Source: a virus
Reading direction: 5' to 3' (one strand)
DNA: 64,000 nucleotides
Virus record (IMG/VR): IMGVR_UViG_3300043570_002257
Location: 1 to 64,000 of that record
Position 1 is the stretch's first letter; each line of letters begins with the position of its first letter. The translations under genes were made by a program, and so were the position numbers. The notes beneath the pieces were generated by a model. That model was not told the DNA's origin and did no database searches. It was given only the letters and a program-made list of their open reading frames with translations. Shown one piece after another: positions 9,145-28,143 of this stretch.

Positions 9145-9588
9145 TTATTTTAAGAATAACAATTTATACTTAATAGAGTTGATAGTACTTTTAACGTTAT
9201 CTAAATCATTAACAACTTCACTGTAAGGTGTCATTGTTTGTAATCCAGATACCATTTCTTTCATCTCTCTTAAATAAGATAATGCTTCTTCTACAGAATT
9301 CAAAATTCTTGGAGCAGAATCTTCATAATTTAGCAATTTTTCTGATGCTCCTTGAAATCCTTCAGCTATAGCGTCAGCGTGACCTGGTAAAGAATCATAT
9401 AATTCATTCAATGCTTTATGTGCAGAAAATGAACCTATACCTGTAACTTTCAAATGTAATTTGTGAAAGCTAACAGATGCATTCATTAGTTCATTAACAC
9501 ATGCTGCAGTTTGAGCTTCACATGAAGTAGCTGCAGGATATCCAGCAGTTGTTCTTTTCAAAGTTTTATATTGTCCTGCAAAGTCCAT
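9145..9588 (-). CDS. Ferritin/Dps-like four-helix bundle protein
   Basis: FHKLHLKVTG.GSFSAHKALNELYD..HADAIAEGFQG..KYKLLFLK; likely start is the ATG at 9588 (MDFAGQ), just after the upstream stop at 9593. Confidence 0.75.
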   Translation of the reverse strand: MDFAGQYKTLKRTTAGYPAATSCEAQTAACVNELMNASVSFHKLHLKVTGIGSFSAHKALNELYDSLPGHADAIAEGFQGASEKLLNYEDSAPRILNSVEEALSYLREMKEMVSGLQTMTPYSEVVNDLDNVKSTINSIKYKLLFLK

Positions 9589-9592
9589 ATTC

Positions 9593-10291
9593 TTAATTAT
9601 TAATTGTTGCTTGTTGTTTGTTTCTTGAATATTGGTTAAACAATTCAATATCTCCAGCTATAATAGAACATGTTTCATCAACAACCATTTCTATAATATC
9701 ATCTTTTAATTCACACTCAACATCAATATCTGTTGTTCCAGTTGAAGGATTTATACATCCCAAGAATGAAATATTTCTTGGTTTTCTATAATAAACTAAC
9801 TGTGGTACAGAAAGATCAAAGTCACCATTTGTGTAAATTCTAAACTTATTACCTTGAACTGTTGAAAATGTCTCACCCCATTTAGCACTTGGTGATCTAA
9901 AGTCATCTCCTAAAAGTGAATCAACATCAGCAACTTGTGCCAAGTAAACAATTAAAGGTCTTTCAGGACAACACTCTGTTATAGCATTTACAGATATTCT
10001 TTTGTAAAACATGTAGTTAGTAGGAATAACAGCTGTTTCATAATACAAAGGAAATTTTGTAGTTGTTAAATTTTGCTCTACAATAAGTACTTGCAAATCA
10101 TCAATGTTCATGATTGTTTGCTCACTACCCTCTTTTCCTTGGTTATGACCATGAACTTGCCTACGTACCCATTCAAGTTGAGCTTTATTAAAAGCCTCAA
10201 CAATCTGCCAACATTCAATGCTGTCATAGTCCTGAGAAGAAAGTTTATTCAATCTTTCTCTAACTTTAATTTGTAGTAGGTTGTTATTCAT
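9593..10291 (-). CDS. Putative head-tail ring protein, crAss-like
   Basis: LNKLSSQDY..IVEAFNKAQLEWV and LVYYRKP..CEL resemble crAss-like ring proteins. Confidence 0.55.
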   Translation of the reverse strand: MNNNLLQIKVRERLNKLSSQDYDSIECWQIVEAFNKAQLEWVRRQVHGHNQGKEGSEQTIMNIDDLQVLIVEQNLTTTKFPLYYETAVIPTNYMFYKRISVNAITECCPERPLIVYLAQVADVDSLLGDDFRSPSAKWGETFSTVQGNKFRIYTNGDFDLSVPQLVYYRKPRNISFLGCINPSTGTTDIDVECELKDDIIEMVVDETCSIIAGDIELFNQYSRNKQQATINN

Positions 10292-11307
10292 TAGTTATTC
10301 CAGTATTTCTCTACATTTTTTGTTACATCAACTAAGGTCTCCTCGTTTAAAGGATTCTTCAAATGTTCTACAACATCAGAAGAGTTTTTACCTAATAAGC
10401 TACTGCTCTTTATGTGATAGATAAATCCATCAGCTCTAGTTGCAATAATCTTATAGAAGTTTGCATCTTTAACAAGTGATCTCAATTTCAATGTTTCCAT
10501 GTCCATTGAACATACATCCAAGAATCTTTCTGCAGTTTTACGTTTGTCTTTATCTACAGTTTCACCATTGATGTATTTATCCATGTTGTCATAAAGTATG
10601 TCAAGTGGTGTAGATTTTTTGTACTGCGTTGAGTTACCATCTACTACTTTACATACGTAGAACAACTTGTTTGTGTTCTTATCAAATAACTTCTGTAACT
10701 CAGCCAATGCTTTGTTACGTAATTTTTTAACTTCAGTTCTTACAGAAGCAGTTTCTTCATACTTATCTAAGTAAAACTTAGGAGGTACTGGAGCTGTTCT
10801 AGCAGTTTCTAGATTTCTTACAACTGCAGAAAAACCACCAGCTTCAATAGCTTTTAGTTTAATCAAGTCATAAGGATCATTAGCAGGATCTAAATAGATT
10901 GGTTCATTACCAAATCTCATAATAATCTTACTCCAAAATGCATCATTATCTGGTCTAAGTAATGTTACTTTATTCCAGAACTGTTCATCATTAGGATCAA
11001 TTACATTAGAAGCAAGTTCTTTTTCAAGTTGAGCAACTGTAGCACGTATTTGTTTAACTGCTGCTTCTCTGTCTTCTTCAGGTAATTGTTTAATCTCAGG
11101 AGCAAATTCATTTAATCCTGTTACATACCTTCTGATACCATTGTTTTCTAAACATGCTAACTGTTCCTCGTGAAACACTCCTTCAAAAAGTACCATGTCA
11201 TACTTTTCAAGACCCATGTTAGAATTCATTGTGTCAATGAACGGGCGTACTGTTAAGGTACTAGACCTCTTAAAGGTCTGATGTTTTTCAATCATTGTTA
11301 CTTCCAT
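10291..11307 (-). CDS. Conserved capsid-module protein immediately downstream of the MCP
   Basis: Long ORF; likely start is the ATG at 11307 (MEVTMIEK) after an A-rich leader. Confidence 0.65.
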   Translation of the reverse strand: MEVTMIEKHQTFKRSSTLTVRPFIDTMNSNMGLEKYDMVLFEGVFHEEQLACLENNGIRRYVTGLNEFAPEIKQLPEEDREAAVKQIRATVAQLEKELASNVIDPNDEQFWNKVTLLRPDNDAFWSKIIMRFGNEPIYLDPANDPYDLIKLKAIEAGGFSAVVRNLETARTAPVPPKFYLDKYEETASVRTEVKKLRNKALAELQKLFDKNTNKLFYVCKVVDGNSTQYKKSTPLDILYDNMDKYINGETVDKDKRKTAERFLDVCSMDMETLKLRSLVKDANFYKIIATRADGFIYHIKSSSLLGKNSSDVVEHLKNPLNEETLVDVTKNVEKYWNN

Positions 11308-11375
11308 AATTTTTTTTTGTTGGTTAAATAATTTTCTTCTTTTTCTTTCTGTTTTTAGCAACTTCTAGTTTAAAG

Positions 11376-11513
11376 CTCCTGAACCACGTCAAGGTAGTTG
11401 CTTCTCAGGAGAACCTGGGATTAACCCAGGCAAGTATTTGTCAAGTTTTACCCTGACGTGAGGAGGTGGAGTCTTGTAAAAGCAGGGACCTAGAGGCTAT
11501 TACACCTCTAGGT
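11376..11513 (-). ncRNA. Candidate pseudoknotted cis-regulatory RNA downstream of the MCP stop
   Basis: Pairings 11376-82/11405-11, 11385-96/11449-60 (crossing; G-U only on the minus strand), 11414-19/11425-30 and 11488-96/11505-13; GC-rich relative to the flanks. Confidence 0.55.
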
Positions 11514-11536: not shown

Positions 11537-13186
11537 TTAGAATGATCCTCCAGTAATTGGATTTCTCATAACAATTTTGAGAACTTTAGTAGGGTCTTTA
11601 ACCCAGATAGAAGGCATGGTTTGAGTCATGAATACTCTGTAACCATTGAAATTACCTGAAGATGCAAAACCTTGACTTCTTCCCATGTAATCCATAGTTC
11701 CATTTTGGTAGAACCATTTCATTTCACTATCCCACTTCAATTTCAACAAGTAAATGTTGTCATTTGTGTTGTCAGTGATGTCAAATACGATGAAGTTATA
11801 AGAAGACAATGGGAAACCATCAATGATTGGGTTTTCAATGTCATTAGTATGAACGTTATCAAAAGCTGGGTTCAACACAAACTTAACGTTAGCTAAGAAA
11901 GGAATAGTGTAGCTAGTGAAAGCAAATCCAAAATTCAAATCCATTGCATTAGTACCAGAGATAGCACCTAAACCAGACTTGCTCATGTCAGCAAATAAAG
12001 AAGTACCAGATCCAGCTGTGCTGAATGCTTCTTTCTTAATTGCCTCATTCACCATCTTCATACCAGCCATACCAGTTTGAACAATGATTTGACGGTTAGG
12101 ATCAGGTCCTTTAAAATCAACTTTACCATTGTAGAAGTTGAAGATCTCAGAACGGAACAACTCTAAGTTGAATGAACCTTTGTTGTAGATACGTTTGAAA
12201 GAGTTGTCTAATTGTGACCAAAGACCAGTTGATAATCTGATATCATCAGGACCATCTTGCTTAATACGTCCACCTTGTCCCCACATTAAGTAGGTTTCAA
12301 TGTCGTTAGCAATTTTGCTTAAGTGTGCAGATTCCATTTTAGTTACAAATGAACGAGTCAATGTACCATTGTCATAAGCTTTCTTAATGTAGTCTTTACC
12401 CATTTTAGCTACCATTGCATCAATGTTAGTTAAAGAAGGATCTTTTGCAATGTTAGAATCAAATGACTTCCAGATCTCAGTTACAGGAACTGTACCATCT
12501 GCATTCATTCCACCTTTCATCATCATTTCTGCGCGAGAAGAAACTGAATAGTGTACGTGAGCTTCAGCACCACCAACATAGTTGTAGTACTCACGGAAAC
12601 CTGCGCTCAATTCTCCAATGTCAGAGAAACGCTCACCGTATTCACCACGAGCAGAACCTTTTCTGAAGAATTTAGTACCTGGCTTTAAGAATCTTTTGTC
12701 AAGAGCTTTTGTGTTATCATTGTTCACTAATTGAACAGTGTAAACAAAACCATCACCTGAAGGAAGAATATCTTCTGCAGTGATATAAAGTTCAGCACCT
12801 TTGTATTTATCATAAGTGATAATATCACCATGTCCAAATACACGCTTGTTAATTTTGATTTTGAAGGTAGTACCATCTTGTCCTAAAACAGCAACGCCTG
12901 GCTCAACATCTTCTACAACGTAAGGAAGATCCTGTACGATAGGAGTTTGCCATTTGTACTCACCACGAGGGTTGTCTACAAGAATAGTGTTTTTACCACC
13001 AAAAGATGCCATCTGATAAAGAGGCATTTCTACCTTTTGGGTCTGTGCCCATAAGTCAACTGGTCCTAAATCCATAGGATCAGTACTCTTAAGCATGTTT
13101 ACCAAATGGTAAGAATCTATGTGAGAACCAACTTTGTAGTTAGTATCACGTAGAAACAGTCCATTGTTTAATACGGGTGTACTCAT
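11537..13186 (-). CDS. Major capsid protein (crAss-like)
   Basis: 549 aa; gene order terminase-portal-scaffold-MCP; IETYLMWGQGG..STGLWSQL and IWVKDPTKVLKI resemble crAss-like MCPs; biased codon usage. Confidence 0.85.
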   Translation of the reverse strand: MSTPVLNNGLFLRDTNYKVGSHIDSYHLVNMLKSTDPMDLGPVDLWAQTQKVEMPLYQMASFGGKNTILVDNPRGEYKWQTPIVQDLPYVVEDVEPGVAVLGQDGTTFKIKINKRVFGHGDIITYDKYKGAELYITAEDILPSGDGFVYTVQLVNNDNTKALDKRFLKPGTKFFRKGSARGEYGERFSDIGELSAGFREYYNYVGGAEAHVHYSVSSRAEMMMKGGMNADGTVPVTEIWKSFDSNIAKDPSLTNIDAMVAKMGKDYIKKAYDNGTLTRSFVTKMESAHLSKIANDIETYLMWGQGGRIKQDGPDDIRLSTGLWSQLDNSFKRIYNKGSFNLELFRSEIFNFYNGKVDFKGPDPNRQIIVQTGMAGMKMVNEAIKKEAFSTAGSGTSLFADMSKSGLGAISGTNAMDLNFGFAFTSYTIPFLANVKFVLNPAFDNVHTNDIENPIIDGFPLSSYNFIVFDITDNTNDNIYLLKLKWDSEMKWFYQNGTMDYMGRSQGFASSGNFNGYRVFMTQTMPSIWVKDPTKVLKIVMRNPITGGSF

Positions 13187-22419: not shown

Positions 22420-22592
22420 GGTTTTTAATATTTTAATTTTATGTACCATTCACTCAGGATTTTCACCTGAACAACCCTCTCATTATAGACTTGTGAGTCT
22501 TAACTGTTCTATTCCACCAAATAGAATGGGTATGCTTTTTTTACACTTACATCAGTGCGGTACTGGCTAGTCCTGCATGGCATTCACCGTTG

Positions 22593-22667
22593 TTGCGGGG
22601 GTGGGATTTGAACCCACGTGGTTTGGCTTATGAGACCAAGCTGGAACCAACTCCAGTCTACCCCGCG
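22593..22667 (-). tRNA. tRNA-Met (CAU) with initiator-like C1xA72 mismatch; CCA not encoded
   Basis: Minus strand CGCGGGG-TA-GACTGGAGTTGGTTCCAGC-TTGGT CTCATAA GCCAA-ACCAC-GTGGG TTCAAAT CCCAC-CCCCGCA-A. Confidence 0.9.
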
Positions 22668-28062: not shown

Positions 28063-28143
28063 AGTCAGGTATTGCGTAATGTGAAAGAGGTGATCACATC
28101 CTTAATGGTTGCAACGTCACAGGTTCGAATCCTGTCCTGACTA
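28063..28143 (+). ncRNA. 81-nt tRNA-like element with a non-canonical core (no anticodon arm)
   Basis: Acceptor AGTCAGG/CCTGACT-A, T arm ACAGG-TTCGAAT-CCTGT, TTGC/GCAA stem enclosing an ATGTGA/TCACAT hairpin. Confidence 0.7.

Follow-up and report, generated by a model that had tools for sequence, protein, structure and literature searches.

A conserved double-pseudoknotted RNA between the capsid gene and the following gene of crAss-like phages resembles HDV-like ribozymes

Genes and features downstream of the capsid gene

The DNA analyzed here, called the window in the following, is a stretch of 64,000 nucleotides and forms part of a virus record of 120,226 bp with an estimated completeness of 95%. 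The stretch was present in DNA runs labelled lake water, freshwater or riverine. At least half of its sampled words were found in 14 run entries, two of which are perhaps the source of the DNA. The minus strand encodes a crAss-type major capsid protein, which was also assigned to PHROG 11589 (major head protein, E 7.8e-33). The capsid gene is followed by a conserved gene for a protein of 338 amino acids, and an RNA element is located on the same strand between the stop codon of the former and the ATG of the latter. The interval contains the following features.

11537-13186, minus strand: gene of the crAss-type major capsid protein, 549 amino acids (Pfam Crass_capsid PF23898, E 3.6e-32)
11539-11537, minus strand: stop codon of the capsid gene
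11478-11513, minus strand: first hairpin after the capsid stop codon, found by a terminator scan; stem 11513-11505 / 11496-11488, then CCCUGC, and UUUU at 11481-11478
11461-11471, minus strand: C-rich tract CUCCACCUCCU, conserved in crAss-lineage copies and located by a regular expression of tract plus core
11385-11460, minus strand: long-range helix of 12 bp, 11460-11449 with 11396-11385, which excludes hp-a and the core parts P3 and L3
11440-11457, minus strand: local hairpin hp-a, GUCAGG / CUUGAC, -8.0 kcal/mol by folding
11414-11430, minus strand: hairpin hp-b, CCUGGG-UUAAU-CCCAGG, ending 2 nt 5' of helix P1 of the core
11357-11411, minus strand: conserved core of 55 nt, with hp-b ahead of it
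11308-11356, minus strand: A-rich, unstructured leader reaching the ATG of the 338-aa gene
11307-11305, minus strand: ATG of the 338-aa gene
10291-11307, minus strand: conserved 338-aa gene 3' of the RNA element, 59-94% identity in 69 loci

The 338-aa protein matched no Pfam or PHROG family and no PDB sequence, and Foldseek gave no match at E <= 0.001. In its structure model (mean pLDDT 78.6) residues 271-337 superposed on the RecA C-terminal domain (Z 9.7, rmsd 1.8, 61 residues), and the model matched no capsid protein. An earlier note on this DNA, which was made from the sequence alone, had called this gene the next structural gene; such an identity was not confirmed by Pfam, PHROG, PDB or Foldseek. 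Between the capsid gene and the 338-aa gene no sigma-70-type promoter was found. A further gene within the structural gene block (9145-9648, minus strand) is Dps-like; its matches are DUF5856, a ferritin-like domain and a PHROG annotated as starvation-inducible regulator. The only tRNA detected by ARAGORN in the window lies at 22592-22667 on the minus strand (anticodon undetermined, Rfam tRNA score 32.7 bits), and a weaker tRNA-like match of 28.4 bits, below the Rfam gathering score, is located at 28063-28143 on the plus strand.

The pairings which the earlier note had described for the mRNA (minus) strand were all recovered. They comprise a 9-bp hairpin formed by ACCUAGAGG (11513-11505) and CCUCUAGGU (11496-11488), the upstream segment CACGUCAGGGUA (11460-11449), a CCUGGG/CCCAGG hairpin (11430-11425 / 11419-11414) and a CUCCUGA/UCAGGAG stem (11411-11405 / 11382-11376) whose loop holds UACCUUGACGUG at 11396-11385. 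The segments 11460-11449 and 11396-11385 are exactly complementary over 12 nt with one G-U pair. This wobble works on the transcribed strand only and becomes a C-A mismatch on the opposite strand. The 12-bp helix and the CUCCUGA/UCAGGAG stem do cross. The GC-rich island seen in the same place is real but modest: the G+C content was 0.41-0.49 in 100-nt windows versus approximately 0.27-0.39 nearby, and positions 12550-12649 within the capsid gene also reach 0.49.

The statement that no hairpin carries a U-tail had to be corrected for the first hairpin, for which the terminator scan lists the stem 11513-11488 with the tail CCCUGCUUUU. A hairpin is present at this place in relatives, too, and a long run of U is frequent there, as in L015, L022 and L023. 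With its G+C-rich stem and U-rich tail, which is a match to the consensus only, the first hairpin of the interval has the appearance of an ordinary intrinsic (rho-independent) terminator. In contrast, the conserved core carries no U tail and is not a terminator.

The C-rich tract at 11461-11471 resembles the anti-Shine-Dalgarno end of 16S rRNA. Besides the window, 22 of 80 loci matched the regular expression of tract plus core. Other type-A copies carry CCUCUCUCCCC in place of the tract, and the copies of unrelated phages lack it. Copies of a second RNA, type B (see below), have a C-rich tract upstream as well. A pairing of the tract with the 3' strand of P1 was considered and rejected, as the tract is unchanged where P1 changes (L015-L017). 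Downstream of the tract, the 5' arm of hp-a corresponds to most of CACGUCAGGGUA, and relatives show, when read by eye, a hairpin of different sequence at the place of hp-a.

Conservation and covariation of the RNA core

To find relatives of the locus, viral contigs were searched with the capsid protein. Among 600 matched stretches 597 were confirmed as relatives, and the best 80 of them (75-99% identity) were kept. In the kept loci the 320 nt after each capsid stop codon were read. A highly conserved block, ...ACCUUGACGUGGUUCAGGAGCU..., was found in the window and in 22 loci, and the sequence flanking this block changes in a compensatory manner.

Additional copies were collected by pattern scans. 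The scan of viral contigs yielded 67 stretches, of which 57 were distinct, including five obvious chance matches in GC-rich coding DNA. Among the 120 stretches listed for the metagenomes, 19 candidates were parsed. Four of these listed candidates are real copies (L178, L203, L224 and L238), and the remaining candidates were rejected as chance matches in GC-rich DNA. The genome scan gave six stretches with a full copy only in a contig of a Lachnospiraceae genome (L272). A looser pattern detected diverse copies in other phages, namely in L288, L290 (two), L321, L338, L350 (two) and L362. A blastn search of the phage collection gave no match. A strict script filter was passed by 42 distinct sequences; two of these are chance matches in GC-rich metagenome DNA and 40 are true copies.

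The conserved core of the window extends from 11411 to 11357 on the minus strand. Its helices P1 and P2 cross each other, P1.1 crosses P3, and the order is P1-P2-P3-P1'-(P4)-P2'. The parts of the core are the following.

11411-11412, minus strand: predicted cleavage site between U11412 (-1) and C11411 (+1), derived from the fold with HDV-like cutting assumed
11405-11411, minus strand: 5' strand of P1, CUCCUGA, pairing with 11382-11376
between the 5' strands of P1 and P2, minus strand: GA, in the window core
11396-11402, minus strand: 5' strand of P2, AGCAACU, pairing with 11363-11357
11383-11395, minus strand: P3 (ACC 11395-11393 / GGU 11385-11383) with its 7-nt loop L3, UUGACGU (11392-11386)
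11376-11382, minus strand: 3' strand of P1, UCAGGAG
11375, minus strand: P1.1, in which C11375 pairs with G11390 of L3; the next pair, U11374 with U11391, is U.U
11364-11368, minus strand: J4/2, CUAGA, with C11368 as candidate catalytic cytosine
11357-11363, minus strand: 3' strand of P2, AGUUGCU

The base of P1.1 is followed by a short linker. In many relatives a GNRA-capped hairpin, P4, is found there instead.

Two alignments were used for the analysis of covariation. In A1, the full MAFFT alignment, the 3' end could not be used. Covariance model R1 gave one copy per contig and misaligned the P4-bearing copies, and alignment A3 was not used. In alignment A2, which contains 25 copies without P4, 94.2% of the cells were paired and 10 of 18 pairs changed on both sides, a result reached by none of 500 shuffles; controls with slid partners gave 31-48% pairing. 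In alignment A4, with 20 copies that contain P4, 94.0% of the cells were paired and two-sided changes were present at 11 of 21 pairs, again a result that no shuffle in 500 reached.

These changes are distributed over the whole fold. For P1, the CUCCUGA/UCAGGAG stem of the earlier note, compensatory changes were present at three of seven pairs in A2 and at four of seven in A4. All seven pairs of P2 changed on both sides in A2. The outer pair of P3 was A-U in 15 and G-C in 5 of the 20 copies of A4, and P3 retains two C-G pairs. The P1.1 pair in A4 was G-C in 18 copies and U-A in two. Judged by these alignments, every helix of the conserved fold is backed by compensatory changes. In other phages P1 is replaced as a whole (CCAUCUA/UAGAUGG, CCCCACA/UGUGGGG, CCUCACU/AGUGGGG and CAUCAUA/UAUGAUG), and P2 is likewise replaced.

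A small number of positions did not vary. The first pair of P1, which would be the cleavage-site pair, was C-G in all 40 distinct copies and also in 36 of 36 cores. Positions 2, 6 and 7 of L3 were invariant in the 42 filtered sequences, with U at position 2 and G at position 6; this invariance is partly built in by the search, as the pattern scans fixed most of L3. The P1.1 pair was G-C in 37, U-A in two and G-U in one of the 40 distinct copies, and its second position was U.U, formed by the U at L3 position 2 and the second base after P1, in 40 of 42 sequences. The motif C[UC]RR, ending 0-3 nt before the 3' strand of P2, was detected by script in 35 of 36 distinct cores and by eye in the remaining one (L139). 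The C of J4/2 forms an invariant column in A2.

Comparison with HDV-like ribozymes

The core forms a nested double pseudoknot with the same order of helices as in HDV-like ribozymes. The dimensions of the two agree as well: P1 of the motif has 7 bp and P2 has 6-7 bp, P3 consists of 3 bp (RCC/GGY) with a 7-nt loop, P1.1 is formed between L3 and the base after P1, and P4 is dispensable. L3 of CPEB3 has the same length as L3 of the motif and differs at about one position. The invariant residues, i.e. the first P1 pair, positions 2, 6 and 7 of L3 and the C of J4/2, gather where the active site of HDV lies. J4/2 of the motif is headed by a C with purines after it, and the catalytic role of this C is that of a candidate. 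A study on theta ribozymes of gut phages describes a catalytic C as first base of J4/2 and minimal forms without P4 (PMC10879173). The G at L3 position 6 (42 of 42 sequences) corresponds to G25 in the numbering of PMC4836649 and PMC13635239. The base at position -1 of P1 was A in 21, U in 13 and C in 6 of the 40 distinct copies and in none of them G, which is the worst -1 base for the HDV ribozyme (PMC1874588). Like HDV-like and theta ribozymes, the motif occurs outside coding sequences in tailed phages and has the orientation of the adjacent gene.

Two described ribozymes share further details with the motif. For CPEB3, PMC4836649 reports a J4/2 of 4 nt, a P1.1 composed of one G-C pair and U-U, the residues U20, C22 and G25 in L3, and G1.U at the cleavage site. 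For the fast-cleaving HDV ribozyme of an Ackermannviridae phage, PMC13635239 reports a P1.1 composed of U:A and U:U, a J4/2 adenine that docks on a C:G pair of P3, and a metal ion near G25. The motif has in common with both a P1.1 of one Watson-Crick pair plus U.U and a J4/2 of about 4 nt. However, both ribozymes keep G1.U, and the sequences are otherwise unrelated to the motif.

The most prominent departure concerns the cleavage site. According to PMC1874588 the P1 helix of the HDV ribozyme has 7 bp and is closed by a G1:U37 wobble that is specifically required, with A:C as best substitute. In contrast, the corresponding pair of the motif is an invariant C-G. P1.1 is also reversed: its Watson-Crick pair reads G(L3)-C, against C(L3)-G in HDV ribozymes. 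HDV-like ribozymes have a U20.G25 pair of L3 at the base of P3; the counterpart of U20, position 1 of L3, is a U in no more than 30 of the 40 true copies (G in 9, C in 1; the scans fixed part of L3). A stable hairpin directly 5' of the motif, ending 0-5 nt before P1, is present in 48 of 49 distinct copies with varying sequence and preserved pairing, also unlike HDV-like ribozymes. Theta ribozymes cut at most 5 nt from a tRNA 3' end and have G at +1, whereas the motif has no adjacent tRNA and C at +1.

The comparison with Rfam that the earlier note had proposed gave no family for the element. Rfam 15, including its HDV-type models, produced no match at E <= 10 with 1301 nt or with the 91-nt core alone, and the element was also unmatched in the loci of 10 relatives. 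The literature on crAss phages and ribozymes and on new double-pseudoknot phage ribozymes held no description of the motif; the RAGATH-defining 2015 paper and the supplements of the theta paper were outside the scope of this search. Because of the C-G cleavage-site pair, the inverted P1.1 and the missing Rfam 15 match, we do not file the motif as a member of the HDV family. If the RNA does cleave, the C-G cleavage-site pair together with the reversed P1.1 implies that it is a new variant, distinct from the ordinary members of the family.

Genomic company and predicted function

The element accompanies the downstream gene and not the 3' end of the capsid gene: in loci with genes inserted after the capsid gene (L020, L022-L024) the motif is still located directly upstream of the 338-aa gene. 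The latter is preceded by the motif in 24 of 61 loci and by type B in at least 10; in the remainder it often has a plain hairpin only. An AACCAA-rich leader ahead of the 338-aa gene was also observed in relatives. Many relatives possess a small gene for a lysine- and glycine-rich protein (start MAGN.KTPKS) between the capsid and 338-aa genes, which directly follows the capsid gene in L033-L035, L038, L041, L043, L047, L050, L059, L061 and L076.

The phage genome of the window contains one copy of the motif. Among the 40 copies, 38 lie outside sense ORFs of at least 60 aa, and in 28 of the 33 copies having a downstream ORF in the locus a same-sense ORF starts within 150 nt. In well-resolved cases from several unrelated phages the motif is positioned 24-59 nt upstream of the ORF. 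In other phages it precedes unrelated small genes. Locus L350 contains two copies 370 nt apart that flank small genes of 79-104 aa with spacers of 27-42 nt, and L290 contains two copies 2.2 kb apart. The copy in the Lachnospiraceae genome contig (L272:7019-7090, minus strand) is almost identical to that of viral contig L097 (33.5 bits). Therefore, the motif is not confined to phages of Bacteroidota-type hosts.

Same-strand matches resembling twister-P1 were detected in four of ten other-phage loci (L097, L110, L288 and L321), all of them below the Rfam gathering scores. In L110 two such matches, of 61.8 bits (E 5.5e-13) and 39 bits, flank the motif and match the consensus core while staying below the gathering score. 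L097 also gave a hammerhead-like match, and L321 and L288 gave RAGATH-12 matches (72 and 70.8 bits), again below the gathering scores. No ribozyme-type Rfam match was found in the other six of these ten loci, in the window or in the seven crAss-lineage loci scanned. According to a review (PMC6765202), bacterial self-cleaving ribozymes occur in clusters and in the vicinity of phage genes, and the processing of polycistronic transcripts may be one of their roles. The motif resembles the twister and hammerhead ribozymes and RAGATH RNAs of phage operons in its intergenic position, its sense orientation and the occasional presence of several copies per contig, but its fold is entirely different and it has no Rfam match.

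Transcripts of the interval were inspected in RNA runs, as assembled metatranscriptome contigs of relatives (approximately 86-95% alike). Contigs of the downstream gene covered 10829-11397 (X15), 10807-11387 (X16) and 11248-11399 (X17), with X15 and X16 running into adapter. Contigs of the capsid gene reached down to 11462 (X17) and 11458 (X18) and had no loose end. No RNA contig among these assembled contigs of relatives spanned 11399-11458, and 11415-11455 was uncovered. The gap fits an RNA end near 11411, and it fits equally well assembly breaks at the hypervariable hairpins or stops of reverse transcriptase; we regard it as a weak hint.

On balance, the conserved fold and its company suggest that the RNA is probably a new self-cleaving variant of the HDV fold, which would separate the capsid mRNA from the downstream mRNA. 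In the predicted sequence of events, the first hairpin would terminate most capsid transcripts, and its leakiness would allow some to read through. Read-through transcripts would fold hp-a, hp-b and then the double pseudoknot. Self-cleavage is predicted at the 5' edge of P1, between U11412 and C11411. The upstream product would be a capsid mRNA ending in hp-a and hp-b, the latter serving as protecting hairpin, and the downstream product would be an mRNA that starts with the compact 5'-OH pseudoknot followed by the A-rich leader. The capsid message and the downstream message would be uncoupled in this way, with separate stabilities and separate translation possible. The interpretation given in the earlier note is retained in its broad form, as a structured, pseudoknotted RNA on the mRNA strand, lying between the capsid gene and its downstream neighbour, agrees with a role in processing. 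It fails for the specific structure with the 12-bp helix. For the packaging-associated RNA named there as another option, nothing pointing to a packaging role was found.

The main rival to self-cleavage is the same fold acting as a non-catalytic structure at the 5' end of the downstream mRNA. As an intact double pseudoknot in the 5' UTR, the element might protect the message from 5'-end-dependent decay, guide ribosomes to the A-rich leader or serve as a protein-binding site. Its location, in the well-resolved cases always 24-59 nt before an ORF, and the unstructured A-rich leader after it agree with such a role. The C-G pair at the would-be cleavage site, too, speaks for it, as it breaks the requirement stated for HDV in PMC1874588, and HDV-like folds in the 5' UTRs of retrotransposons are reported to aid translation initiation besides cleavage (PMC6765202). 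However, different phages have different genes downstream, which speaks against an operator for a gene-specific protein. In its helix sizes and invariant bases the motif is also very similar to a known catalytic core, and it is accompanied by twister-like ribozymes. We consider a purely structural 5' UTR element less likely than self-cleavage.

Far less probable is the proposal of the earlier note that mutually exclusive folds around the 12-bp helix act as a switch or pseudoknot which sets the ratio of capsid to downstream protein. In the window itself the helix is beyond chance, since none of 200 shuffled versions of the 110 nt upstream gave a run of 12. Its formation would make P3 and L3 inaccessible, and the minimum free energy fold of the minus strand contains it (-65.2 kcal/mol, z -4.4; plus strand z -3.4). 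Counting nested helices only, the 12-bp helix plus hp-b (-29.2 kcal/mol) is similar in energy to hp-a, hp-b, P1 and P3 of the conserved fold (-29.8 kcal/mol), with P2 (duplex -7.7) and P1.1 outside both sums. However, hp-a forms first in folds of the growing transcript. Moreover, most relatives lack the helix: a complementary run of at least 9 occurs in only 6 of 49 distinct relatives, all of them from the clade of the window, and the other 43 show runs of 4-8 between the upstream segment and the P3/L3 segment, no different from shuffles. The core motif of other phages lacks any such partner. As judged from these comparisons, the competing 12-bp fold is real in the clade of the window, and it is not what selection maintains across the family. 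Finally, the least probable reading is a riboswitch or other ligand-sensing RNA controlling the downstream gene. The location in a 5' UTR, the high conservation of the pseudoknotted core and its invariant unpaired bases would suit such a role. However, the core is followed by an unstructured leader with no expression platform, i.e. no terminator and no helix sequestering the start site. In addition, the phage genes found downstream are unrelated to one another and of unknown function, and no Rfam riboswitch family matches.

Self-cleavage by the conserved double pseudoknot would have several consequences. Cleavage would show that the G.U wobble, which mutational and structural studies treat as a requirement, is dispensable for the HDV fold, and it would make the motif a natural system for examining what the cleavage-site pair and the metal ion do. 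A ribozyme would be added to the structural-gene operon of crAss-like phages, for which the literature on crAss phages and double-pseudoknot ribozymes that we searched contained nothing similar, and its function would be to uncouple the capsid mRNA, which is very abundant, from the mRNA that follows. As the group would be missed by structure-based searches demanding G at +1, phage self-cleaving RNAs may be under-counted. If the RNA does not cleave, a catalytic fold has been reused as a plain structural element. More tentatively, the motif may represent an undescribed subclass of self-cleaving ribozymes with HDV fold in lake-water crAss-like phages and other phages, including those of the gut, and type B perhaps a further self-cleaving class that was swapped in.

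In sister phages the 338-aa gene is preceded by type B, a second conserved pseudoknotted RNA found at L042:4684-4775 and in 18 further loci (alignment A6), with short forms in L037, L040, L078 and L080. It is composed of stem I (CCUGUUG/CAACAGG), a hairpin with a UGAUCA loop, a hairpin GAGAG-CUUGCAA-CUCUC and a 3-bp pseudoknot GCR-YGC. In A6, 96.6% of the cells were paired and 8 of 19 pairs changed on both sides, which none of 500 shuffles reached. Type B could be another processing RNA. Neither type B nor a third conserved block, type C, had an Rfam match (8 loci; type C at E <= 1). Type C, CAGUACUCAG...ACCAG..CUGG.UAAAACACCC...CUGAGUCAUUU, is located upstream of type B in some relatives (L054, L056, L045, L057 and L066), approximately 90-160 nt after the capsid stop codon.
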